Source: an archaeon (GTDB taxonomy: Archaea > Asgardarchaeota > Thorarchaeia > Thorarchaeales > Thorarchaeaceae). From it: 17,253 bases of DNA. How positions within the stretch are numbered: position 1 is the stretch's first letter; the number at the start of each line of letters is the position of its first letter. A program made the translations under genes and the position numbers. The stretch spans positions 1-17,253 of the forward strand of contig JAJRWI010000011.1 of assembly GCA_024276825.1 (NCBI GenBank), given 5' to 3'. The notes beneath the pieces were generated by a model. The model made no database searches, was not told the origin of the DNA, and was given only the letters and a program-made list of their open reading frames with translations. This document shows positions 1 through 15,944 of the stretch, piece by piece.

Positions 1-1260
1 CTTCCATAATAAGACTGCAAACAAGAAGGGAATATGAGCGATGCTCATCTCCAGACTTTCTCGTAGATTAAAAGTCACTGTGGCCATTTCACGAGGCTTT
101 GGCCTTGGTTTTCCTAAACGTATCCATTTTGAAAGGTCTGTGATGCGAACTGGGCCATATCGGACTCTGAAACCAGTCCGTGTTTTAATCTCAATTGGGT
201 CCATTCCTGCAGCTGAGAGTTGGGGCAGAATTAGTTCACGGTGGTTAACGATGCTATCCAGGTTAACCAGTCTTACCATGTGAATTACATCATTGGTGTC
301 AAAATGTGTGCCACGCGCCGCGCACCAGACATTAATGCCATCCGTATCACATACTAGAACCCAAGCATTCAAACCATCTTTTGTCAAGGTACGCATGACT
401 GTTAAATAGGTGAGTTCATAATTCGCTGTCACAATTACTGGGCTGTTCTCATCAGGAGAGCCAACTCCATAAAGACCAGGATGGATGGCTATGCCCCTCC
501 AGCTTCCTGTTAAATGGTTATACAGAATTCTGGCTCGCGCCTTAAAGCCCAAATATTCTTTCTTGACATTGATAAAAATCTGTCTTGGGTTTCCAATGCC
601 CCGTTTGCCAATGACGAGAGTTATCTCAGGACCATACTTTTGAATGCTTTCAATTTCAAGGCCTGAGTCTTCAATTATTCGCCTGATGTCAGTGATTGGT
701 GGGGGAAGTTTCTTTTTTGCTTTTTTCATAGCCTTTTTTCTGTTTTTCCAAAAGGTTCTTCTCTTAAATCGTCCCTTAGGAAGAGTTTCAGCAGCAATTA
801 TAAATTTTCCATCCTGCTTCAATTGGTCACGGACAATTTTCATGAATAAGTATCTCTCAGAGGGTTTAATCTCAGATAGAAGAAATGTGCTTACTATCAA
901 GTCATATTTGTCCATGGTGCTATCGTCCGCACTCTTATCACATGTTGCCTGTGATTCACCCAGACGCAAGATGTCCATTCTAATGAAGTTTGGAGGATTT
1001 GACATCTCTGAGGCCTGCTGCTCTGCATAGGATATCATTGCATCATCTGCATCTATTGCATCAATTAGTGCCCCTTTTCTTGCAGCATCCCGTGCAAAGC
1101 GACCAGTTCCACATCCTAGATCCAGAACTCTCATATTGGGCTTGACATGCTTAAGAATCTCAGTGTGAATATATGTAACTCGTCCGTCAAGCACTTGATC
1201 AAACAGGTGTTCATATGTTTCGGGAGTTTCTTCCAATGATATCATAAAGGCAACAGCCAT
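1..1260 (-). CDS. Fusion protein (3'-truncated by the window): N-terminal class I SAM-dependent methyltransferase + HgcA-like/CFeSP-family corrinoid-binding domain + start of a membrane segment
   Basis: Hand-translated; not in the ORF track. ATG at 1260 is preceded by GAGGTG (RBS), and 420 codons stay open to the window edge. N-terminus is MAVAFMISLEETPETYEHLFDQVLDGR. SAM motif I is VLDLGCGTG (1102-1128), followed by AIDADDAMI, YDLIVSTFLL and LKQDGKFIIA. From aa 261: PGLYGVGSPDENSPVIVTANYELT...AWVLVCDTDGINVWCAARGTHF...VNHRELILPQLSAAG...GFRVRYGPVRITDL...EMATVTFNLRESLEMSIAHIPFLFAVLLWK, which follows the HgcA motif order. Confidence 0.88.
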   Translation of the reverse strand, partial: MAVAFMISLEETPETYEHLFDQVLDGRVTYIHTEILKHVKPNMRVLDLGCGTGRFARDAARKGALIDAIDADDAMISYAEQQASEMSNPPNFIRMDILRLGESQATCDKSADDSTMDKYDLIVSTFLLSEIKPSERYLFMKIVRDQLKQDGKFIIAAETLPKGRFKRRTFWKNRKKAMKKAKKKLPPPITDIRRIIEDSGLEIESIQKYGPEITLVIGKRGIGNPRQIFINVKKEYLGFKARARILYNHLTGSWRGIAIHPGLYGVGSPDENSPVIVTANYELTYLTVMRTLTKDGLNAWVLVCDTDGINVWCAARGTHFDTNDVIHMVRLVNLDSIVNHRELILPQLSAAGMDPIEIKTRTGFRVRYGPVRITDLSKWIRLGKPRPKPREMATVTFNLRESLEMSIAHIPFLFAVLLWK

Positions 1261-1317
1261 CGTAAGCACCTCATTAAGAAGTCCAATTGTTTGGTCATAG
1301 GTTCACTTCACATAATG

Positions 1318-1330
1318 AATAATAAGTTTT
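1318..1330 (-). promoter_or_regulatory. Putative BRE/TATA promoter of the MTase-HgcA-like gene
   Basis: Minus strand reads AAAACTTATTATT about 60 nt upstream of the ATG at 1260. It resembles the TTTATTA boxes upstream of other genes in the window. Confidence 0.3.
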
Positions 1331-1368
1331 AGAAACTCAAATAGAGTAAACATTCTAGCTGGATGATT

Positions 1369-2526
1369 TCAGAACGCATTCCTCAAATCTTCAATCAGGT
1401 CGTCAACATCTTCAATGCCGACTGAAACTCTGATCAGCGAGTCTGTGATGCCGAGACTCTCTCTAGTTTTTCTTGGAATGCTTGCATGGGTCATCAAGGC
1501 AGGATGTTCAATTAGCGACTCGACGCCTCCAAGACTCTCAGCCACGATGAATATCTTAAGGCGACTCAGGAAGTCCTTTACATAGTTCAGGTCTCCATCG
1601 AGCTCAAAGGATATCATTCCACCAAAGCCTTTCATCTGCTTCATAGCCAAATCATGTTGAGGGTGATCATCCAGTCCGGGATAGTGCACTCTTCGCACCT
1701 TGTCATGGGATTGCAGGAATTCTGCAATCTTTAATGCATTATCAGCATGACGCTCCATTCTCACTGCCAGTGTCTTAATACCTCTTAAGACCAAGTAGCA
1801 ATCAAATGGTGATGGGACAGCACCTATAGCATTCTGGTTGAATTTTATCTTATCATAAGTTTTCGTGTCAGATAGTACTACTGCACCGCCTACCACATCA
1901 CTATGCCCACTAAGATATTTTGTAGTACTGTGAACAACAATATCAGCCCCCAAATCAAGAGGTGATTGAAAATATGGACTCATGAATGTGTTATCAACAA
2001 CGGTGATAAGACCCTTTTCACGAGCAATGTTCGATATTTCATTAATATCGCATAATCTCATCATAGGGTTTGTGGGCGTTTCCAGCCAGACCAATCGCGT
2101 GCTTTCGTTTATTGCTCGCTCCACATTAGTACTATCTCTTGCATCAACATAGGTGAATCTAAGTCCAAATTTACTAAGAACGCTATCGAAAAGTCTGCGG
2201 GTTCCTCCATAAAGATCGTCAAATGCAACCACATGATCTCCTTGCTTGAGTATTGACAAGAGCAGGGTTGCTTCTGCCGCCATTCCTGATGCAAATGCCA
2301 GAGCATATTGCGCTCCCTCTAGAGCAGCAAGCCTCTTTTCCAAGGCATCTCTGGTCACATTGCCAGTTCTAGAGTATTCATACCCTGCTGTTGGCTCGTC
2401 TAGCTTTTTTCTTGCGAATGTTGATGCCAAGTGGATGGGGACTACAACATCACCATATCCCCCTGGCTTAAGATTGGGCTCTTCTCCGACATGAATCGCT
2501 TTCGTGGCAAATCTCATTGTTATCAT
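1369..2526 (-). CDS. Cystathionine gamma-lyase/gamma-synthase (Cys/Met metabolism PLP enzyme, MccB/MetB-like)
   Basis: Motifs YEYSRTGN, FASGMAA, DDLYGGT, WLETPTNP, VDNTF, HSTTKYLSGHSD (PLP lysine), AESLGGVESL and IRVSVGIE. The start overlaps the upstream stop as ATGA (2523-2526). Confidence 0.9.
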   Translation of the reverse strand: MITMRFATKAIHVGEEPNLKPGGYGDVVVPIHLASTFARKKLDEPTAGYEYSRTGNVTRDALEKRLAALEGAQYALAFASGMAAEATLLLSILKQGDHVVAFDDLYGGTRRLFDSVLSKFGLRFTYVDARDSTNVERAINESTRLVWLETPTNPMMRLCDINEISNIAREKGLITVVDNTFMSPYFQSPLDLGADIVVHSTTKYLSGHSDVVGGAVVLSDTKTYDKIKFNQNAIGAVPSPFDCYLVLRGIKTLAVRMERHADNALKIAEFLQSHDKVRRVHYPGLDDHPQHDLAMKQMKGFGGMISFELDGDLNYVKDFLSRLKIFIVAESLGGVESLIEHPALMTHASIPRKTRESLGITDSLIRVSVGIEDVDDLIEDLRNAF

Positions 2527-3500
2527 CTCGGTCCAATAAAGCCATGTTCATTCATCCACTCATCTGAGTAGATCTTGCTTATGTAATTACGGCCAGTATC
2601 GGGGATAAGAACGACAATTAATTGGTCTTCGGTCATGCTCTTAGCGACTTCCAAAGCAGCAAACATTGCAGCCCCCGATGAACCCCCTGCCAATATTCCC
2701 TCTTGCTGGGCCAGTTTCTTTGTTGTCAACATGGCATCTCTATCACTCACAACAATGACTTCATCAATCACACTTAGGTCCAATGTCGAAGGCATGAAAT
2801 CCTCTCCAATACCCTCCACAAGATATGTGTGAATCTGACCCTGTGTCCCATAGAACTCGTGATGATACATTGAACCTTCTGGGTCTGCACCTACGACTCG
2901 AATATTGGGGTTTTTCTCTTTGAGATACTTGCTTGTTCCCGAAATTGTGCCCCCCGTTCCAATCCCTGCAACAAAGACATCGAGCTTTCCATCAGTCTGC
3001 TTCCAGATCTCTGGCCCTGTTGTGGCATAATGTGCAGCAGGATTGGCAGGATTGAAGTATTGATTTGGCATGAATGCCCGTGGGTTGTTCTCGACGATCT
3101 GCTCAGCCACTTTAACATAGTTTTCGGGGTGGTCAGGCTCAACATCAGTGGGGGTTATGATCACCTCTGCCCCCATGGCTCTTAGCAGGTCTATCTTCTC
3201 ATTACTCATCTTGTCGGGAATTGTGACAATCATCTTGTAGCCCTTTACAATGGCCGCTAAAGCCAGACCAATCCCAGTATTGCCAGAAGTTGGTTCCACA
3301 ATAGTATCGCCTGGCTTAATCAGACCTGCTGCTTCGGCTGCTTCAATCATCGAAATCCCGATACGATCTTTTACGCTACCTCCGGGGTTGAAGAACTCTA
3401 ATTTGGCCAATATTGTTGGCTTGAGACCCTCAGTTATTTTATTCAATCGCACAATTGGAGTGTTGCCAATAGTTTCAAGAATATTGTTATATACATCCAT
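2523..3500 (-). CDS. cbs: Cystathionine beta-synthase / cysteine synthase family PLP enzyme (catalytic domain only)
   Basis: Motifs IGNTP, KLEFFNPGGSVKDR (PLP lysine), EPTSGNTG and GTGGT. NQYFNPANPAAHY, DPEGS and YLVEGIGEDF look more like CBS than CysK. Start moved from the track's TTG at 3533 to the ATG at 3500, which follows AAGGTGA. Confidence 0.85.
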   Translation of the reverse strand: MDVYNNILETIGNTPIVRLNKITEGLKPTILAKLEFFNPGGSVKDRIGISMIEAAEAAGLIKPGDTIVEPTSGNTGIGLALAAIVKGYKMIVTIPDKMSNEKIDLLRAMGAEVIITPTDVEPDHPENYVKVAEQIVENNPRAFMPNQYFNPANPAAHYATTGPEIWKQTDGKLDVFVAGIGTGGTISGTSKYLKEKNPNIRVVGADPEGSMYHHEFYGTQGQIHTYLVEGIGEDFMPSTLDLSVIDEVIVVSDRDAMLTTKKLAQQEGILAGGSSGAAMFAALEVAKSMTEDQLIVVLIPDTGRNYISKIYSDEWMNEHGFIGPR

Positions 3501-3551
3501 TATATCATTCACCTTCTTATTTAACAAACTCAAAATACATAGTAATAATTC

Positions 3552-3929
3552 TCATAATTGACAAGCGCTGCAGTTGTCGGGCAATTCCATTGTACCATGA
3601 TGCAAGTTGCATACCATATTCTGTTTGCGTAATATAACGCACAATTTACAAAATGTCATCATGATATCAATGGGTGAGAATTCATTTGATACAATCTTCA
3701 TTGTTGATTCATGCACAATAGACTGAAACTCAGGAATTGTTTCTAAAGTGTCTATCAATTGATTACCCCTCTTGCGACTCATGTATTGACTTATTGCAGC
3801 TTGAGTAATTCCAAGAGTTTGCGCTGCCTTGACCTGAGAGAACGAATGTTTCTCAATCAGTTCTCTGGCCATTAATGAACGAAACGCTGGCAATACAGCA
3901 GTGACAATTAATTCGCAAGGAGTCCGCAT
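3552..3929 (-). CDS. Archaeal HTH transcriptional regulator (COG2522 / ThiR N-terminal-domain-like) with a Cys/His-rich C-terminus
   Basis: MRTPCELIV..LPAFRS...SQVKAAQTLGITQAAISQYMSRKRG HTH signature; C-terminal FCKLC...CNLHH...CSAC. Confidence 0.8.
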   Translation of the reverse strand: MRTPCELIVTAVLPAFRSLMARELIEKHSFSQVKAAQTLGITQAAISQYMSRKRGNQLIDTLETIPEFQSIVHESTMKIVSNEFSPIDIMMTFCKLCVILRKQNMVCNLHHGTMELPDNCSACQL

Positions 3930-8039: not shown

Positions 8040-8846
8040 TTATTCAATTCCAAGAAGCTTCATCATTGTCACTTCATCAAGAAGCCCAATTCCTTCCGCA
8101 ATTTCAGTCACTGCATTCAAGGATGGAGAACTGTCAGGCAGCTCAAAGATGGGCTTTCCAAGATAGTTCAATTCTGCGATCTTATCGTCTTCTGGAACTG
8201 TACCAATGAAATCCAGCCCGTTCTCTTCTAGTCCCTTGGAAAGCAGAGGAATGAGACTCTCGGGGACTCTGTTCGCAATAACCAGAATCCTTTTGAAATC
8301 AATATGGACTTCCTTTGCCAAATCACGAATTCGAATCGCTGCTTCAAAAGCGGCGCGTGAAGAGTCTATCACAATGATCAATACATCAACATTGCGATTT
8401 GTCCTCCTGCTGAAGTGCTCAAGGCCAGCACTCATGTCCATCAATGTAATGTCGTAGTTAGATGTCAATCGGTCAAGAATCTGTGTGAGCAGACGATTCA
8501 CATAACAGTAGCAACCTTCTCCTTCGGTCCTGCCCATTGCCAAAAGATCAAACTGCTCGCCCTCAACGAGTGATTCGAAGATCTCACCTTCAAAGATGTC
8601 TTGCTTTGCAGCAGACGCTGGCAGCTCCCCATTGTCTATCTTTCTTCTTATCTCTGTGGCAATGTCTCCGACTGATTTTGATATATCAACACCTAAGGCC
8701 CGAGGCAGGTTCATCACTGGATCTGCATCTACTAGTAGGAGAGACCTCTTGGTTTTACTTAACAAGACTCTTGAGAGGAGAGCTGTAAAAGTAGTCTTTC
8801 CAGTCCCACCTTTGCCTGATACAGAGATCACCAGTTTTTCTCGCAT
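8040..8846 (-). CDS. cooC: CooC/AcsF-type nickel-insertion ATPase (probably the acetyl-CoA synthase maturase)
   Basis: Deviant Walker A GKGGTGKTT, DADP, metal-binding GEGCYC and DMSAGLEHFSR; lies downstream of cdhE. Confidence 0.88.
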   Translation of the reverse strand: MREKLVISVSGKGGTGKTTFTALLSRVLLSKTKRSLLLVDADPVMNLPRALGVDISKSVGDIATEIRRKIDNGELPASAAKQDIFEGEIFESLVEGEQFDLLAMGRTEGEGCYCYVNRLLTQILDRLTSNYDITLMDMSAGLEHFSRRTNRNVDVLIIVIDSSRAAFEAAIRIRDLAKEVHIDFKRILVIANRVPESLIPLLSKGLEENGLDFIGTVPEDDKIAELNYLGKPIFELPDSSPSLNAVTEIAEGIGLLDEVTMMKLLGIE

Positions 8847-8991
8847 TTATATCACTAGCTCTTATTCCATTTGAGAAGATTGCAGATTCAATTTCTAATT
8901 GAAACTTTTAGTCTTTCCTATGCAACAGTAAATAAAGCCAGACATCTCAATTGAAGCGAAGAGAGAGGAGATTGTTTATGATCTTGAACAA

Positions 8992-10407
8992 TCACTCCTC
9001 TTTCCACAGTTCCTTTTGAAGATATTTTGGAATTCCACTTGAGTCTCTGGGACCGACCTTTACCGTCCATCCACTTGCCTCTTCGGTCTCACCACTGATC
9101 CTTGCCGCCATGCCTGGACTGATGATGATACGATGGTTCACCTTTTCTCCAAGTCCATATTCTTGAATTGCTTCAGCGACCTTTTCAGCAGTCAGCTTTC
9201 GACCAGCAACTGCAGACTGCACACTCATTCCTTCGGTGTCAATGACAAGCAGCCATGCATCCACATTACCCTGTTTAATGTCACTCTCCACTGTGAAATA
9301 TGTCAATGCAAAGTTCGTAGTATACATCACAGGTGAATCAGGTCCTGCATCTCCGAACTTGATCAGACCGGGCTGTACAGAAACCGGCTTTACGGGATCC
9401 GTATAGAGATTGCTCCTCAGAAATGTCAAAGGCAGGTTTGTCCACATGTCAAGGCTATGAAGGACAATAATGTCTGCATATCGGACGATCATTGCAGCTG
9501 CAGTAAGAACCTCATCCCACTTTGTGAGCTCAGGTGCATCGCCCTCCTTATAATCAGCCCATACTGAGATTGGCGTGCATAAAAGAGGATACCCAACCTG
9601 TTCATTGTCTGCAATGGTTGCAGCTCTTCTGAGTTGATTGAAGTTATCGACAGTTGTTCCAAGAGCAGAACGTGATAGTGTACCTGGATCCAGCACTATG
9701 TCATGAACACCCATCGCTTGCAATGTTGTGGCGAGCGATGCAAGATCGCTCAGGTTGTTGGGCGCATAGGCGACAATGGGCAGGTCGTGCTTGGCAGCAA
9801 TCTTTCCAAGTTCTGACCATGTGTCCACTGTAGCTGCATAGAGTAGGGGTCGTTTATCTGCAATTGCAGTGGCTGCGGCAGAGAGTAATTTGGCATCTAG
9901 AGAGCATAGCATTATTGGCCAATCAGTCAGACCAATGAGTTTCTTTGCTGCGTTAGCAAAGGTCTGAGGGTCTTTAGAAACACAACGAAGGGCTACTCCA
10001 TCAAGTCTGAGACCCTGTCCAATATAGACATAGGTCCAGTCCTCAATTGCCTTCACTCTCTTCTCAAAGGCCTCTGCATCTAGATTATCAGCTATGTCGA
10101 TGAAGAAAGCAGTGGGATTAGTATAACGAAGGTCATGCCTATAGAGTACCAGTTTTCCACCTATTGCAACGGTTTTCTCGCCTGTGCCTATAACGACTTC
10201 CCTCACTGGAGGGCGTAGAAGTTCTTCCAGTTTCGCACGATTCTTTGCGTACTTCTCTTCTTCATATAAAGGCGTACAGTCAGTGAGCTTTACTGTATGC
10301 TCTGCCATTTTCGCCGCGAATGCCATGCAATTGGCCTCACCACAGATTTTGCAATTTGTCCCTGGAAGTAGTGGATAGATCTCCATTGGTCCTGCAAGCT
10401 TTGCCAT
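8992..10407 (-). CDS. cdhE: ACDS gamma subunit (corrinoid iron-sulfur protein, large subunit)
   Basis: N-terminal [4Fe-4S] motif LPGTNCKICGEANCMAFA..C; YTDP.KP; C-terminal corrinoid domain TTNFALTYFTVESD...GPRDSS. Confidence 0.95.
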   Translation of the reverse strand: MAKLAGPMEIYPLLPGTNCKICGEANCMAFAAKMAEHTVKLTDCTPLYEEEKYAKNRAKLEELLRPPVREVVIGTGEKTVAIGGKLVLYRHDLRYTNPTAFFIDIADNLDAEAFEKRVKAIEDWTYVYIGQGLRLDGVALRCVSKDPQTFANAAKKLIGLTDWPIMLCSLDAKLLSAAATAIADKRPLLYAATVDTWSELGKIAAKHDLPIVAYAPNNLSDLASLATTLQAMGVHDIVLDPGTLSRSALGTTVDNFNQLRRAATIADNEQVGYPLLCTPISVWADYKEGDAPELTKWDEVLTAAAMIVRYADIIVLHSLDMWTNLPLTFLRSNLYTDPVKPVSVQPGLIKFGDAGPDSPVMYTTNFALTYFTVESDIKQGNVDAWLLVIDTEGMSVQSAVAGRKLTAEKVAEAIQEYGLGEKVNHRIIISPGMAARISGETEEASGWTVKVGPRDSSGIPKYLQKELWKEE

Positions 10408-10408
10408 C

Positions 10409-11596
10409 TTACACTCCCTCCGGTAATGCCATTGAAGTCCAGTCAGGATAGTCCTCAGACTTCACGGGCTTTCGTTCCTTCATCCAGTCAATCAGATCAT
10501 GAACCGTCTTGATTGCCGCAGGATGCATCATCATAAACAAATCATTACCTGCTAGCAATAAAGCCAGTGCCGTGACACTCTCCCATATTGGACCTCGCAG
10601 TTCTCTCGGGCCCAGAGCAGGGTCCTTTAGCCAGGCCTCACGGGCGGCCCATGCATTTGTTGTGCCAGAACTGATTGGGTATTGCAGCTCGGAGTCACCG
10701 AGTAGTCCTGCAAGACGCATTCTCTGCATAATTGTAAATGCATATTCAAGACCATATCCCAGTGCGGCAGTTGTTGGATCTATCACAATCTGCTCAGGCT
10801 TTAGCCAATCGATAAGACGACGATTGAGCTCTTTCTGCTGATTGATATCAAGTGATGTCCATGATAGAACCACTTGATTATACTTCTTGGCAGCTTCGGC
10901 GATTGGCTCATATACATCAACAGTTGCAGAACAGAGAAGTGTGCGCTCTCCCTCACAGACTTCTGCTGCCTTCGCAAGGACAGGACCATCCTTACCAGGG
11001 TCTCCAGCAGAACCAATCAAGACTGGAACCTTGACTGCCTGCAATACTTCCTCAATAGTCTTAGCAGCCTCATTGGGCGATGTGTCTTTCAATTGACGGT
11101 CCGTGCTGATCAGGTGCAATGTAATTGCATCTGCGCCATACTTGTTCACGCAGAGTTTCGCCCATTCAGCAGGGTCCTCCAAGACCTCTTCATAGTGGTT
11201 CTTGACCACCTTTGCCAGAGATATTTTCATATCAAACACATCAGCTGCGATAATTGGCAGATGCTTGGGCGGAGCTTGAAAGAGATCCCATGCAGGAGCC
11301 TTATGACCGCCAATTGTCAAAGTCTTACTTCTTGTTCCACCTTCATTCTTAGTCGCACCTATCGTGACCTCATGAATCTTTGATGTATATTCACCAAAAG
11401 GTGGCGTGAATTTGGCAGGAATCAGCGATGTTGGCATTGATAGTGCGGGCTTCGCCACTTGAGCAGCCACTTGCTGTATCATTGGCTGAAGTGACAGTCT
11501 GAGTTCATCCAGTTCAATGGTGACGTTCTCTAGGACTAATTCTGCGAACTCACCAAACATCTCGTCAAGGTTTGATTTCCGCTCTTCGTCAGTCAT
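10409..11596 (-). CDS. cdhD: ACDS delta subunit (corrinoid iron-sulfur protein, small subunit)
   Basis: Motifs DPAEWAK, IDPTTAALGYGLEY, NAWAAREAW, RGPIWE and MMMHP; ATGA overlap with cdhC. Confidence 0.95.
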   Translation of the reverse strand: MTDEERKSNLDEMFGEFAELVLENVTIELDELRLSLQPMIQQVAAQVAKPALSMPTSLIPAKFTPPFGEYTSKIHEVTIGATKNEGGTRSKTLTIGGHKAPAWDLFQAPPKHLPIIAADVFDMKISLAKVVKNHYEEVLEDPAEWAKLCVNKYGADAITLHLISTDRQLKDTSPNEAAKTIEEVLQAVKVPVLIGSAGDPGKDGPVLAKAAEVCEGERTLLCSATVDVYEPIAEAAKKYNQVVLSWTSLDINQQKELNRRLIDWLKPEQIVIDPTTAALGYGLEYAFTIMQRMRLAGLLGDSELQYPISSGTTNAWAAREAWLKDPALGPRELRGPIWESVTALALLLAGNDLFMMMHPAAIKTVHDLIDWMKERKPVKSEDYPDWTSMALPEGV

Positions 11597-12999
11597 TTTC
11601 TCTTCTCACCCGCTACCTTTCGACGAATGATGACTTTCTCAGCATATATTCGAGCATTCTTGAAGATTATCTCAATGCCACCGCCAACTCCGCCAACCAT
11701 TGCGGTAAACTCACCTGGAACCATTACTGCACCATCTTCAGATGTGGCCACCTGAGCAGCTGTTTCTTCTTCTGCTTCAAGTTCAGTCCACCGATTAACA
11801 ACAGGATGGTCATGAGTCTTGAGAAACTCTTTGAGTTCAGATATTGTTGTGACATCATTTTCGGTTGGTATCTTATCGCGTACATGTTCAGGGATAAACT
11901 CAAGGACTCGTTTTTTGATTGGTTCAGGGATCCACACGATGCGTTCCCATCCTCCATCAACCTGAAGAAACTTTGTTGAACGCATATATTCTATTGAGAT
12001 GCCATGAAATCCAGGAACTTGTCGGCCTCCTGCGGTAGTATCTGCCATGCTTGAGAAAGTCAGACCATTCACCGCCTCGCCCTTAAAGTCTCGATGCACT
12101 ATTCCAAGACCATCAACTTCAGGAATGACGAACGCAATTGCCTCAAAGCATCCACAGCTGGTGTGTGGCTTTTCAAAAGCGCTATAGAGTGATACCTCTT
12201 TCACCTTCCCAAGGGATTTCTCTGCATAGATTTGGTTCACGCCAGTGTACTCTCCACGAAAATCATCAATGGTCTCGCCCTTGGGAATCTCATACAGTGG
12301 ACCCTTTGGATCAACTCGTGCTGCAGCTCGTCCATCAAACCAGCTTATTGCACCGCAATTTGCATATCGTTGTGGAGTTATAGTGCATACATGGGTTGGT
12401 GCGAAAGACTGACATAGAGAGCATCCGTAAAAAGTGTCCACATCCTCGTCTTTCAGACCTCTTGCGCGTGCATCGCGCTCGTTGTACCTGTTAACTGCCT
12501 CATCATATCTATTCTCAAGTTCTTTGGCGTCAGTGATGAAAGTCACCTGGATTTTTTCGATTATGCTCATTTCACTCTTGAACAATCGTATCAATACTTT
12601 GCCAAGGTACTCCAATGAGTTGAAACCTTTTTCAAATGATTTCTTGCTGAGTCGAATCCAGATGTCATATCGCTGGTTAAGGTGCATCATTCCTTCAATG
12701 AAGTTGACATACTCGTGAATCCGCCGCTCAATCACTCCCTCAAGGTCGGGTTCAATCTCATTTCCTGCCACTTCAACCAAAATGGCAAAGGGATTATAGC
12801 TGCCCTCTTTCATATCCTTGAGATCAGGACCGATTATTGTGATTCTTTCATCTTCAACTTCATCCATCGAACGGGCCAAAGCGAGTTCAAACTTTTTCTC
12901 AATCTTTGGACCACCCAACTCAACGAACATGTCCTTACCGCGGACACGCTCTCCCTCGTAAATAACGCCTACATCTACTGGTAAGTCATCAAATGACAT
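11593..12999 (-). CDS. cdhC: ACDS beta subunit (acetyl-CoA synthase)
   Basis: Motifs YEGERVR, ERRIH, MHLNQR and the A-cluster ligands CSLCQSFAPTHVC, CGAI, HTSCGCFE. Start set at ATG 12999 after GGAGGTGG (the track starts at 13020). Confidence 0.95.
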   Translation of the reverse strand: MSFDDLPVDVGVIYEGERVRGKDMFVELGGPKIEKKFELALARSMDEVEDERITIIGPDLKDMKEGSYNPFAILVEVAGNEIEPDLEGVIERRIHEYVNFIEGMMHLNQRYDIWIRLSKKSFEKGFNSLEYLGKVLIRLFKSEMSIIEKIQVTFITDAKELENRYDEAVNRYNERDARARGLKDEDVDTFYGCSLCQSFAPTHVCTITPQRYANCGAISWFDGRAAARVDPKGPLYEIPKGETIDDFRGEYTGVNQIYAEKSLGKVKEVSLYSAFEKPHTSCGCFEAIAFVIPEVDGLGIVHRDFKGEAVNGLTFSSMADTTAGGRQVPGFHGISIEYMRSTKFLQVDGGWERIVWIPEPIKKRVLEFIPEHVRDKIPTENDVTTISELKEFLKTHDHPVVNRWTELEAEEETAAQVATSEDGAVMVPGEFTAMVGGVGGGIEIIFKNARIYAEKVIIRRKVAGEKRK

Positions 13000-13000
13000 A

Positions 13001-13546
13001 TTATTTGCCACCTCCAACAAAGACCAAAATTCCTTTCAAAAGCTCTTGATAGTTTTTCTCTTTCAAATTGGGCATACTCCAAGTCGCATGAGGTTGATAA
13101 TACCTGCTCAGCGAGATTGGCACAATATGCCGTGCAAAATTCATGATGCCTGATAACATTGTCCATTCCATATAATACGGAAGGCTGTGTGTTAGAATCA
13201 TATCATGAGGACCTTGCCCATGAGGACCTTTCCATTTTGGGTCCTGCAGATAGCCCACTATTTCCATGACCCCCATTGATTTGGCCCCTTCAAATCCACG
13301 TTCGATGAAATGCTTTACCGCTCCACCTGTTGCCACTATAGGGGTCTTTGTGATCTTGGAGAATTCAATTGAGAAATCAATCATGTCGCCCTTGCCAAAT
13401 TTGATGGTGGATGCTTTGGAGCCAACAATCATGAGAGGCTTCTTTGCCTTGCTCCAGACTCTCTTCAATTGCTCTGGCTTATTGAGTGATTTGGCTGATA
13501 CAGGACCGCAGATCTCTCCGGTCTGCCAAGGAGTTGCGCGCATCAT
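13001..13546 (-). CDS. cdhB: ACDS epsilon subunit
   Basis: Motifs PWQ, KAKKPLMIVG, LQDPKWKG..G.GPHD, PYY and YYQPHATWS; located between cdhA and cdhC. Confidence 0.9.
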   Translation of the reverse strand: MMRATPWQTGEICGPVSAKSLNKPEQLKRVWSKAKKPLMIVGSKASTIKFGKGDMIDFSIEFSKITKTPIVATGGAVKHFIERGFEGAKSMGVMEIVGYLQDPKWKGPHGQGPHDMILTHSLPYYMEWTMLSGIMNFARHIVPISLSRYYQPHATWSMPNLKEKNYQELLKGILVFVGGGK

Positions 13547-13551
13547 TTTTA

Positions 13552-15894
13552 TTACTCACCTCCAGTAAAGACCTGCTCCTTAAGCAGGGTGGGATCTGGA
13601 ATAGGCCGTTCCTTCCATTTGTTCTCCTTCATCTGAGCAAGTATCTTGTCCTTTAATGTGATTGGAATGTCAGATTCACGGCGCACATATTTCCAGACAT
13701 CTTCTGGGAAGTAGCCCATGTATTTTTCATGCAAGTCCACATAATGGCTCAGCTTGATGGCTCTGCCTTTACTTGTGTCATTAGGACGTATACATAATTT
13801 GGCAGTGAGCACATTTGCCTCGGCCACGGTTTCTGCAGCATAGAAGAGATGCTCAGGACCGGGAGCGGTGTACACACGTTCACCCGTGCGGGCATCATAG
13901 ACCATCCAATCTTGATCACGGTCTGCTCTTCCTAATAACATCCTTCTGTATTTTGATCCATGTGGGCCCACAATGACAGGAACTCCGAGCCGCCAGAAGC
14001 CTGCAGCAATTGAAGCAGCCTTTTGAGACATGGCGCCCCATGATATGCCAACAGCACCAACTCTGTTGTGGATGTAATCAGCAATTTCTGCATAATTTCC
14101 TCGCAGGTTTCTCTTTGCAAATATGGCTGCGATCTTTATAGCAGCTCCTGCAATATGAGAGTTGGCAACACATGACCCTACATTGACAACACATCCCGCA
14201 TCGAACTCGCCACTTCTTCGTTCATAGATTGTCTGACCATTCTCATCCTTGATGAACCCAGCAGACATTGCTGCGCAGCCAGAGGTCACTACTATGAATC
14301 GCCTTTTGGCAAACTCTTCAGCCATATCATGAACATCTTGTCCTCCACCCGGATAGTTCGCACAACCAACGTGAGCAATTATGCCCGGAATCTCGCCAAA
14401 GACAATAGGTTGACCAACTCTTCGAATCTCAGTATCCTGAATGGCACCGCGTCCCGTTCTTACTATGAATTTTTCATTCTCGCATATCTTTTGAGAGACT
14501 GCAACCATCCATGTATGAAGTTCAAAATCATTTGGACATGCGGCCTCGCATCTGGCGCAGCCAATACAGTTCTTGAACACATCACGGAGAGGCTGCATGT
14601 TTCCACTCTGAGCCGCTAGCACTGCCTCTTGCACATTCAAACTATTGGGACAGGCACGGACACATTCCATGCACTTCTGACAGTCCTGCGCCAGTTGTTG
14701 GATTTTTTTGGCACTTGGAAAGTATCGCTTCTTCCTTCTAACAGGTTTGACCGCCAATGCTACTCGTGTTGCCACCTCACCAACCTTATGGGGATCAGAA
14801 ATGTAGGCACCCGGAATTTTTCCTGATACAATCTCTTCAACAATCGAGTCAATAGAATCGTCAGTTCTATCAGGCAGCCCCATTACAGCTTTATCACTCG
14901 TAGAAATCACAGGCGAGCCTACTTTTTTCGCCTCAGTGACCACATCTGTTCGAATACATTGAGCATCAACAACAATGACATCCGCTTTGCCACTCCTGAT
15001 AAATCGGAGTTGCCATGAAATTGGCCCAATGACTTTGGCCTTGGGGTCATGTCTTGTGATGTCCCAAGCAGTGCAACATATACCCCCTACTTCGACTTGG
15101 TCGTTCAGCTTGTTCTCTGTGATATAATCAGTTATGAATGATGCAGGAACAACATTATGCCCAATTGTGAGAATGATTGCTTTGTTTGTGTCCATCATCC
15201 CAAACCCAGATTCCACCAGCGGGGCATCAGGGTCAGCTTGGGGCATTCCCAAAGTTGATACTTGAACTAAATCAGCGATCTCCATAGAGAGCTGATCTAT
15301 CATTCCGGTATGAAACACCTTACTCTCAAAGTCCATCCAACTGCCTTCCTGTCCTGTGTGAGTTGCGGACATGGTGTGTGTCAGTTGACTCTCACAATAG
15401 TCAAGGATGATACTGGCATCTTCCAAGGTTCGAGGACGCATTCCCGTCACAAGTCGTGAGACAGGCGCGTGAATCTCAGTGCCAGGTCCTTGAATCAACT
15501 TTGTTCGGGGACCATATTCTTCTATCAGATGTTCCACAAGATGTCTTGCATGAGCAAGATGTGCGGAGCATCCCATGTTGGCCGCTATAAGAACAATCCT
15601 TGCCTGTTGTCCTTTCATATCAAGACCGCAAGCCCCTCGTTTATCACCCGAAAGGTCGCACTTTCCAAATGTACAAAGGCAACACACTTGACAATATGGC
15701 ATGTACGAGGGCTGATATTTTGTCAGTAGCTTGTAGTCCCATGATCGCAATGTTGTAGGACCGGGCATTGGCGTTGGACCCATGGGTTCATCCCATTCGT
15801 CATCAACGATTTGACCAATCCTAACCTCAAGCCCCTTGAAAAGACCAAAACTCGTTTCGGCCTCATCGGCTTTTATATAGGCTTTCTTTTTCAT
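13552..15894 (-). CDS. cdhA: ACDS alpha subunit (archaeal-type Ni-CO dehydrogenase)
   Basis: Motifs MGPTPMP, CQVCCLCTFGKC..GACG, HTGQEG, GHN, GICCT, two extra Fe-S motifs CQKCMECVRACP and CIGCARCEAACP, then GCAN, GSCVAN and WGAMSQKA. Probable start is ATG 15894 (MKKKAY; the track starts at 15939). Confidence 0.95.
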   Translation of the reverse strand: MKKKAYIKADEAETSFGLFKGLEVRIGQIVDDEWDEPMGPTPMPGPTTLRSWDYKLLTKYQPSYMPYCQVCCLCTFGKCDLSGDKRGACGLDMKGQQARIVLIAANMGCSAHLAHARHLVEHLIEEYGPRTKLIQGPGTEIHAPVSRLVTGMRPRTLEDASIILDYCESQLTHTMSATHTGQEGSWMDFESKVFHTGMIDQLSMEIADLVQVSTLGMPQADPDAPLVESGFGMMDTNKAIILTIGHNVVPASFITDYITENKLNDQVEVGGICCTAWDITRHDPKAKVIGPISWQLRFIRSGKADVIVVDAQCIRTDVVTEAKKVGSPVISTSDKAVMGLPDRTDDSIDSIVEEIVSGKIPGAYISDPHKVGEVATRVALAVKPVRRKKRYFPSAKKIQQLAQDCQKCMECVRACPNSLNVQEAVLAAQSGNMQPLRDVFKNCIGCARCEAACPNDFELHTWMVAVSQKICENEKFIVRTGRGAIQDTEIRRVGQPIVFGEIPGIIAHVGCANYPGGGQDVHDMAEEFAKRRFIVVTSGCAAMSAGFIKDENGQTIYERRSGEFDAGCVVNVGSCVANSHIAGAAIKIAAIFAKRNLRGNYAEIADYIHNRVGAVGISWGAMSQKAASIAAGFWRLGVPVIVGPHGSKYRRMLLGRADRDQDWMVYDARTGERVYTAPGPEHLFYAAETVAEANVLTAKLCIRPNDTSKGRAIKLSHYVDLHEKYMGYFPEDVWKYVRRESDIPITLKDKILAQMKENKWKERPIPDPTLLKEQVFTGGE

Positions 15895-15944
15895 TTTGTT
15901 CCTGTCCCTCGAGTTATCAATGTATTTTCGGGTTAACATATATC

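Follow-up and report, generated by a model that had tools for sequence, protein, structure and literature searches.

A CpaM-type methyltransferase fused to an HgcA-like membrane corrinoid protein in Asgard archaea

The mercury methylation proteins HgcA and HgcB (NF040863 and NF040864; Parks 2013) are a membrane-anchored corrinoid protein and a separate, adjacent 2x[4Fe-4S] ferredoxin. S-adenosylmethionine (SAM), rather than methyl-tetrahydrofolate, has been demonstrated to be the catalytic methyl donor of HgcAB, which uses it directly, and residues C73, C94, and C95 of HgcB are reported to be crucial (PMC11588087). Why microbes carry HgcAB and how its corrinoid gets methylated are open questions, SAM having been named as the donor only in 2024. 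A community protocol recognizes HgcA and HgcB by high-stringency motifs (PMC10087281), and arsenic and S-adenosylhomocysteine (SAH) both elicit a response from the ArsR-like regulator of true hgcAB (bioRxiv 10.1101/2022.10.17.512643). A second family, termed HgcAB-like (NF043039), is connected to the methyltransferase CpaM (NF043040, "corrinoid protein-associated methyltransferase"): unfused HgcAB-like genes have a 212-amino acid (aa) methyltransferase translationally coupled just upstream and an ArsR-type gene ahead of it, while methyltransferase fusions are widespread and dominate the HgcAB-like supergroup. Here, these systems are compared with a fusion gene at the left end of a 17,253-nucleotide stretch of DNA from an archaeon of the Thorarchaeaceae (GenBank assembly GCA_024276825.1, contig JAJRWI010000011.1). 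This stretch, referred to as the window, is the entire contig C82 of genome G000 (2.94 Mb, 98% complete). The gene is confirmed as a real Asgard (Thorarchaeota-type) gene, cut by the contig edge, that encodes a SAM methyltransferase together with a membrane-anchored corrinoid protein. Judged by sequence, it belongs to a separate lineage of HgcA/HgcB-type systems that is confined to Asgard archaea, carries a CpaM-type methyltransferase as a fused domain, and is catalogued under a generic name only.

The fusion gene, its continuation and its relatives

On the minus strand, the open reading frame (ORF) list and its translation give a single uninterrupted frame from a GTG at 1269 past the left window end. 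A preliminary description, made from the letters alone, had placed an open frame joining a methyltransferase and a corrinoid domain at 1-1260 and had remarked that the ORF track missed it. The frame is borne out by the ORF list and by Pfam and NCBIfam searches, and its absence from the track is explained by its running off the contig. The quoted motifs were likewise all found—VLDLGCGTG, PGLYGVGSPDENSPVIVTANYELTYLT, DTDGINVWCAARG, LILPQLSAAG, GFRVRYGPVRITDL, and EMATVTFNLRESLEM, then the hydrophobic IAHIPFLFAVLLWK. The ATG at 1260 is the likely start codon. The coordinates 1-1260 are the right ones because this codon gives the N-terminus MAVAFM, which is conserved in the family, and because a ribosome-binding-like GAGGTG precedes it by six bases; the GTG at 1269 lies inside that motif and is probably a wrong start.

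In the translated protein, Pfam Methyltransf_25 is covered over its full model by aa 48-154, and the CpaM model matches aa 7-213 with 125.5-126.9 bits (cut-off 180), the next-best methyltransferase model reaching 37 bits. Residues G49, G51, G53, and D70 of this domain are invariant in 63 homologs. A PADLOC "mad2" match (60 bits, aa 40-166) was set aside as generic methyltransferase-fold likeness. The corrinoid part matches CdhD/PF03599 at aa 260-373 (E 1.4e-21), with only profile positions 266-377 covered. Over aa 258-418, the truncated window protein scores 189.9-192.8 bits against the HgcAB-like model (cut-off 285) and 171.2 bits against HgcA (cut-off 275). Full-length relatives stay below all three cut-offs as well, with 194-205 bits for HgcA, 176-219 for HgcAB-like, and 114-140 for CpaM; one of them spans positions 28-321 of the 325 of the HgcA model with 205 bits and scores 114 bits for CpaM. 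The hallmark of HgcA, a PF03599-type corrinoid domain with a cap-helix Cys, is present in the form of NVWC, and so is a C-terminal multi-helix membrane domain, whose first helix lies at the window edge and whose remainder is encoded elsewhere in the genome. The methyltransferase, as is typical of CpaM, is of class I, SAM-dependent type and encoded with an HgcA-type protein, here by in-frame fusion. In contrast, the single chain of corrinoid, membrane, and ferredoxin domains that characterizes HgcAB-like proteins is not seen, the ferredoxin being unfused. The N-terminal Fe-S domain and full-length PF03599 of CdhE/AcsC are also lacking (NF003195, 88 bits against a cut-off of 306).

Since the window is a whole contig, the 3′ truncation of the gene is an assembly edge. 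The gene resumes on another contig of the same genome, C74 (35874-36275, minus strand), after a gap of about 22 codons. The right end of C74 opens, on the minus strand, within a helix-rich frame that is open to the contig edge and has the same phase as the frame in the window. Alignment to intact relatives of 574-578 aa places the two pieces on either side of the ~22-residue gap, and the C74 piece matches the C-terminal membrane domain of these relatives with 49-73% identity (tblastn). Five bases past the stop of the membrane-domain frame lies a gene for a 105-aa 2x[4Fe-4S] ferredoxin ending in ECCGK. The transmembrane helices and HgcB-like ferredoxin for which the preliminary description had suggested looking to the left are both on C74, the ferredoxin as a separate gene. 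Pieced together from these sequences, the complete gene would comprise about 578 codons for methyltransferase, corrinoid, and membrane domains, followed by the separate ferredoxin gene. An exact-match scan of the metagenome contigs with the first 40 bases of the window found no contig bridging C74 and C82.

A homolog search returned dozens of proteins of 571-590 aa with 55-65% identity and the same Pfam architecture in Thor-, Odin-, and Sif-archaeota and "Promethearchaeota", and a second group of about 550-560 aa with 33-37% identity in Lokiarchaeota. The NCBI name of the close homologs is "methyltransferase domain-containing protein" only. Among 201 sampled genomes of the phylum, full-length orthologs occur in nine further genomes of the window's family, and in all nine the fusion includes an in-frame membrane domain and is followed directly by the ferredoxin gene. 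Every close relative without the methyltransferase that was checked is labelled partial or begins at a contig edge. Within the best 150 global representatives, the methyltransferase domain is found in none of the 98 HgcA proteins with the GK motif, while all ten proteins with the AARG motif are fusions or shorter pieces consistent with fragments. Several candidates were rejected on the way: the short AARG protein P0368 is a fragment rather than a split form, as it begins at base 1 of its own contig; the giant P0350 (4450 aa, 38 matched stretches) is a low-complexity Thr/Val/Gly repeat protein with no NxWC motif and hence a spurious match; and an in-frame TGA in a clade-B match (G135), considered as selenocysteine, is the stop codon of the upstream gene. 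Two other TGA-bearing matches have no cap-helix motif in the retrieved stretches.

That the gene is divided over two contigs, with some 22 codons missing, might suggest an assembly artefact, a chimera, or a pseudogene. Such an explanation is extremely unlikely: each piece reads through to its contig edge without a stop and in the common phase, and the two match intact relatives on either side of the gap with 50-73% identity; the domain junction lies well within the window, and the fusion is not a chimera because the same architecture recurs in dozens of independent assemblies and at all nine family loci. A frameshift or assembly error splitting the two domains, named beforehand as what would speak against the fusion, was not seen; the domains share one frame here and in all full-length homologs.

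The AlphaFold model of the closest intact relative, P0002 (built with 63 homologs; predicted local distance difference test (pLDDT) 85.6, predicted template modelling score 0.80), combines a methyltransferase of Rossmann type with a corrinoid domain of alpha/beta structure and, at residues 398-572, five long helices. Of the PDB entries, 9a0b_A, the deposited model of HgcAB, matches it best (34% identity), with SAM methyltransferases coming next; the nearest solved proteins by sequence are the large subunits of the corrinoid iron-sulfur protein, 4djd_C and 2h9a_A. The ferredoxin on C74 has HgcB (NF040864) as its best NCBIfam match, over the full model with 58.7 bits (cut-off 99). Alignment with genuine HgcB from two hgcAB loci revealed that it retains two CxxCxxCxxxC cluster motifs, the Cys of the GVGC site, which reads GCGC in this ferredoxin, and the terminal Cys-Cys—the combination that, beside hgcA, characterizes HgcB—and all of these are invariant in 12 partner ferredoxins. 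The GCGC Cys and the terminal pair are the counterparts of C73, C94, and C95 of HgcB. The HgcB motif C(M/I)ECGA is replaced by CTNCTA. A complex predictor scored the fusion protein and ferredoxin at 0.60 against 0.00 for the best of three controls, with contact agreement between runs of at least 54% and partner pLDDT of at least 57. When the predictor was calibrated, 58 of 80 solved complexes got to the mark, as did 2 of 110 mismatched pairs; scores of 0.60 or less account for just 7 of those 80 and for both mismatches. Custom alignments served as input, and resemblance to the deposited HgcAB model may add to the score. The prediction lends weak support to the pairing.

Placement beside HgcA and the link to CpaM

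The cap helix separates three groups: it reads NVWCAAGK in true HgcA, NVWCAA(G/C)GG in HgcAB-like proteins, and NVWCAARG in the Asgard clades A and B. The latter form is invariant in 63 sequences (63 of 63 aligned clade members), which thereby depart from the community high-stringency HgcA motif; the Asgard pair fails the motifs of that protocol for HgcA and HgcB alike. In a corrinoid-domain maximum-likelihood tree rooted on nine CdhE sequences, the window's own CdhE among them, the CdhE sequences form the outgroup (100/100); clustering with ordinary CdhE, which the preliminary description would have taken as a refutation, was therefore not seen. True HgcA is monophyletic (100/99) and excludes the Asgard fusion clade, in which the Thor and Loki fusions group together (96/87), and the HgcAB-like supergroup is recovered with 91/85. 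The Asgard clade appears as the sister of true HgcA with 95/88, or 89/69 with a single outgroup, a relation that the sequences favor but do not settle. Independent support for a placement near HgcA comes from the membrane domain, which aligns colinearly with its counterpart in true HgcA; the two have in common the loop M(D/N)F.G.T...SP....E (LTMDFAGMT..SDP...E against LAMNFTGSTP.TSP...E), which has diverged in the HgcAB-like groups. A tree of the methyltransferase domains yields the same three groups as the corrinoid domains; with distant outgroups its deep branching order is not resolved and the long branches of the outgroup are scattered, so only the three-group partition is usable. In the work of Lin et al. 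2023, for which the first 327 columns of the alignment had been trimmed, Asgard sequences fell in the fused-HgcAB subtree. No mention of CpaM or of a methyltransferase-fused HgcA was found in the literature searched.

True HgcA is the only lineage without a CpaM partner. Triple fusions of about 640 aa occur in several Asgard lineages, and others of about 590 aa in Promethearchaeota, Calditrichaeota, and Desulfobacteraceae. The genome under study itself carries a second system of this kind on contig C18 (7391-9313; L002:757-2679, plus strand), a 640-aa single chain that exceeds both cut-offs with 248-251 bits for CpaM and 333-335 bits for HgcAB-like. Its fused ferredoxin tail is without the HgcB-type Cys after cluster 2 and without the terminal Cys pair, and a Cys-free winged-helix gene stands ahead of it. 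Anaerolineales-type fusions of methyltransferase and PF03599 (about 540 aa; L024:4001-5870) carry the cap helix NVWC(A/G)(A/S)GG and branch as a separate clade basal to the rest of the HgcAB-like supergroup; the 83-aa ferredoxin 3′ of this fusion has a partial first cluster motif only and neither the HgcB-type Cys after cluster 2 nor a Cys tail.

It is conceivable, if doubtful, that the Asgard pair is the surviving ancestral form of the entire HgcA family: a SAM-driven corrinoid methylase of soft metal(loid)s under ArsR-type control, with arsenite or Hg(II) as substrate. True HgcA would then be the one lineage that dropped the CpaM domain and took SAM directly, mercury methylation would be a side reaction of an ancient metalloid-handling enzyme, and an ArsM-independent route of anaerobic metal(loid) methylation would be defined.

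Genomic context, proposed mechanism and alternatives

Among the loci of relatives, four of ten Thor loci have, as the gene directly ahead of the fusion, one for a 130-aa ArsR-family protein with a CVCE site. Twenty Loki-type loci were examined, 17 of which gave the NVWCAARG target; in eight of these 17, the fusion is immediately preceded on its own strand by a gene for the arsenite-efflux protein ACR3 (274-278 bits, cut-off 282.8), accompanied in seven cases by a divergent ArsR/SmtB regulator. These ArsR/ACR3 contexts point to soft metal(loid)s. Biosynthetic genes were not seen in the 27 loci examined. Elsewhere in the window's genome, ACR3 is present on contig C4, and a search with NF008823 found no ArsM. 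The best ArsR-like match, considered as a counterpart of the relatives' ArsR, is a generic one on C35. Further ORFs accompany the Loki-type cluster: one of about 417-424 aa past arsR (L051:1726-2979, minus strand) travels with it, and ORFs of about 106 and 120 aa follow the ferredoxin (L051:7163-7561 and L056:7132-7845, both plus strand, and equivalents), all without a Pfam or NCBIfam match. A DUF166 gene is inserted ahead of acr3 in two Loki-type loci.

Positions of the features are collected in Table 1. Directly upstream of the fusion and co-oriented with it are genes for a Cys-rich regulator and for two pyridoxal phosphate (PLP) enzymes of the cystathionine beta-synthase (CBS) and cystathionine gamma-lyase (CGL) types. 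The cbs-cgl pair constitutes a homocysteine-to-cysteine route that would clear the SAH-derived by-product of SAM use. Since this adjacency occurs in none of nine orthologous loci, it was not taken as functional evidence. Farther along, the window holds a complete cdh operon for carbon monoxide dehydrogenase/acetyl-CoA synthase (CODH/ACS). A CdhE match occurs in none of four other genomes of the same family, a small sample in which the pathway looks patchy.

Table 1. Features of the window around the fusion gene
Feature	Position	Strand	Basis and remarks
Methyltransferase-HgcA-like fusion, partial coding sequence, 420 codons	1..1260	-	ORF list, translation; 3′ end cut at contig edge
CpaM-like class I SAM-dependent methyltransferase domain	631..1251	-	CpaM NF043040, Methyltransf_25, invariant residues, fold match
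SAM motif GxGxG, VLDLGCGTG	1102-1128	-	within methyltransferase domain
HgcA-type corrinoid-binding domain (C-terminal Rossmann-like part of PF03599)	16..501	-	NF043039, NF040863, PF03599 profile
Cap-helix motif NVWCAARG	310..333	-	motif comparison; presumed cobalt-ligating Cys codon 322-324, Cys313 from the ATG at 1260, Cys316 in P0001 numbering
Beginning of first transmembrane helix (IAHIPFLFAVLLWK), HgcA-type membrane domain	1..42	-	alignment with intact relatives
Intergenic region 5′ of fusion gene	1261..1368	-	GAGGTG 1267-1272; A/T box TTATTATT 1318-1325, ~60 nt before ATG, candidate promoter element only
CGL/synthase-type PLP enzyme	1369-2526	-	PF01053, 528 bits; context only
CBS/cysteine-synthase-type PLP enzyme	2523-3533	-	PF00291, 280 bits; context only
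Cys-rich helix-turn-helix regulator, 125 aa	3552-3929	-	co-oriented with the two PLP genes (1369-3929)
Acetyl-CoA hydrolase/transferase (N- and C-terminal domains) with C-terminal GNAT acetyltransferase domain, 629 aa	6008-7897	-	
cdh (CODH/ACS) operon: CdhA-type (795 aa), 181-aa ORF, CdhC, CdhD, CdhE, CooC-type ATPase	8040-15939	-	CdhE at 8992-10407

The reading favored here, with a probability of roughly 55%, is that of a three-part membrane enzyme of about 578 residues that works as a relay: ferredoxin generates Co(I), SAM turns this into methyl-Co(III), and a metal(loid) acceptor receives the methyl group. It builds on the observed architecture, its conservation, and a distinct lineage beside true HgcA. 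First, the separate HgcB-type ferredoxin would reduce the cobalamin to Co(I). The fused methyltransferase domain would then bind SAM and methylate Co(I) to give methyl-Co(III), and the methyl would finally move to a thiophilic metal(loid) on the invariant Cys cluster of the ferredoxin (GCGC and terminal CC). Hg(II) and As(III) are the leading candidates for the acceptor; corrinoid binding, SAM use, and methyl transfer by the fusion protein are predicted activities. The preliminary description had put forward, as an inference from the sequence, a relay from SAM via Co(I) to an acceptor within a self-contained enzyme: the methyltransferase and corrinoid domains do lie in one chain, but a separate HgcB-like ferredoxin gene follows. 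Its statements concerning the wider family can be documented, given that the use of SAM by HgcAB as methyl donor has been published (PMC11588087) and that stand-alone CpaM proteins beside HgcA-like genes exist, as exemplified by the coupled 212-aa methyltransferase and the NCBIfam CpaM model.

Several observations weigh against the relay to a metal(loid). The cap helix is without the GK that every proven Hg methylator has, C(M/I)ECGA is missing from the ferredoxin, and none of the tested organisms with the related fused HgcAB methylated Hg. True HgcAB has no methyltransferase domain and uses SAM all the same, so the role of the fused domain could differ. An approximately unbiased (AU) test keeps the alternative topology with all methyltransferase-linked lineages in one clade (p=0.204). 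As to the acceptor, strain ND132 made no methylarsenicals, a result that speaks against As(III), at any rate in the case of true HgcAB (bioRxiv 10.1101/2022.10.17.512643). The eight acr3 loci belong to two genera of one family; they are not independent and may reflect one ancestral arrangement. At the window's own locus, neither arsR nor acr3 lies near the fusion gene, and the Cys-rich regulator found there is unrelated to the ArsR of the relatives (BLASTP E 6.6; weak HTH_3 matches).

The protein might instead be a CpaM/HgcAB-like system acting on a non-metal substrate—an organic small molecule, peptide, or lipid, or a halomethane to be dehalogenated—with an incidental Cys-rich tail. The best match of its methyltransferase domain is indeed CpaM, the HgcAB-like supergroup is dominated by such fusions, organisms with fused HgcAB do not methylate Hg, and a 2026 preprint reports that HgcAB dechlorinates halomethanes. 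This explanation is unlikely, albeit worth serious attention, since the corrinoid domain is nearer to true HgcA than to HgcAB-like proteins (95/88, although the AU test keeps the alternative), soft metal(loid)s are indicated by the invariant thiols of GCGC and CC as well as by the neighboring ArsR and ACR3 genes, and biosynthetic genes went unseen in the loci examined. Another explanation is a genuine mercury methylase, that is, a functional HgcA/HgcB ortholog with an added SAM-loading domain. The cap-helix Cys, the HgcA-type membrane domain, the separate HgcB-like ferredoxin with its equivalents of C73, C94, and C95, the sister position to true HgcA, and an adjacent ArsR-type regulator as in many proven methylators would all fit. 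This is nevertheless rather improbable, as the pair fails the community high-stringency motifs, remains below the cut-offs of NF040863 (205 against 275) and NF040864 (58.7 against 99), and falls outside the true HgcA clade (100/99).

A further possibility borrows from methionine synthase, in which reductive reactivation depends on SAM. By analogy, the fused SAM domain could be a repair module that remethylates inactive Co(II), the catalytic methyl group coming from a Wood-Ljungdahl C1 carrier. The complete cdh operon about 8 kb away on the window would be in line with such a role, as would the SAM use of true HgcAB without a methyltransferase domain. However, the proximity to cdh is not kept in relatives, the domain is an ordinary class I methyltransferase unlike the activation domain of MetH, and SAM rather than methyl-tetrahydrofolate is the catalytic donor for HgcAB (PMC11588087), which makes a repair function very unlikely.

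A dedicated SAM methyltransferase in the same chain is genomic evidence of the Rosetta-stone kind that independently supports a step from SAM to cobalt throughout the family, and it offers an experimentally tractable contrast between the same enzyme with and without a loading domain. The Asgard lineage is apparently the nearest relative of true HgcA and keeps all tested HgcA/HgcB hallmark residues except GK and CMECGA. It ties the HgcA family to ArsR/ACR3 arsenic loci in Asgard archaea, and as an uncharacterized sister lineage it could help reveal the original function of the family. Motif-filtered hgcA surveys discard the Asgard genes; if these proteins methylate Hg, Asgard-rich sediments hold methylators that current surveys miss.

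Comparison with known systems

CdhE/AcsC (PF03599; PDB 4djd, 2h9a) possesses a homologous C-terminal cobalamin-binding domain, the nearest that has been solved experimentally. The fusion protein differs in that it has no N-terminal Fe-S domain and no TIM barrel and instead features a cap-helix Cys, a membrane domain, and a methyltransferase domain; the CdhE of the window is a distant outgroup to it. ArsM shares the class I SAM methyltransferase fold, and in sister clade B the gene forms part of an ars-type operon. ArsM models are matched weakly, though (25-50 bits), and in the Asgard system a corrinoid and a ferredoxin are interposed.

The CpaM/HgcAB-like systems, of which the 640-aa triple fusion on C18 is a bona fide member in the same genome, resemble the Asgard system in coupling or fusing a CpaM-type methyltransferase to an HgcA-type corrinoid and membrane protein and in having ArsR-type regulators upstream. 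In contrast to these systems, the Asgard ferredoxin is a separate gene and not a fused tail, the last membrane helix is kept, and the ferredoxin retains the HgcB Cys features that are absent from the tail of the C18 paralog. The corrinoid domain groups with true HgcA, and the scores remain low for this family (219 against 285 for HgcAB-like, 114-140 against 180 for CpaM).

HgcA/HgcB, finally, has in common with the Asgard pair the PF03599-derived corrinoid domain with its NVWC cap helix, the C-terminal five-helix membrane domain with a common loop motif, and the 2x[4Fe-4S] ferredoxin, encoded by a gene of its own next door, in which a Cys follows cluster 2 and a Cys-Cys pair lies at the terminus. 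ArsR-type regulators are often nearby in both, and SAM is the likely methyl source. The differences reside in the cap helix (AARG in place of A(A/G)GK), in the ferredoxin (CTNCTA in place of C(M/I)ECGA), and in scores below both curated cut-offs. The Asgard protein also adds an N-terminal class I SAM methyltransferase, absent from 98 of 98 representatives with the GK motif, and forms a separate, Asgard-only clade.

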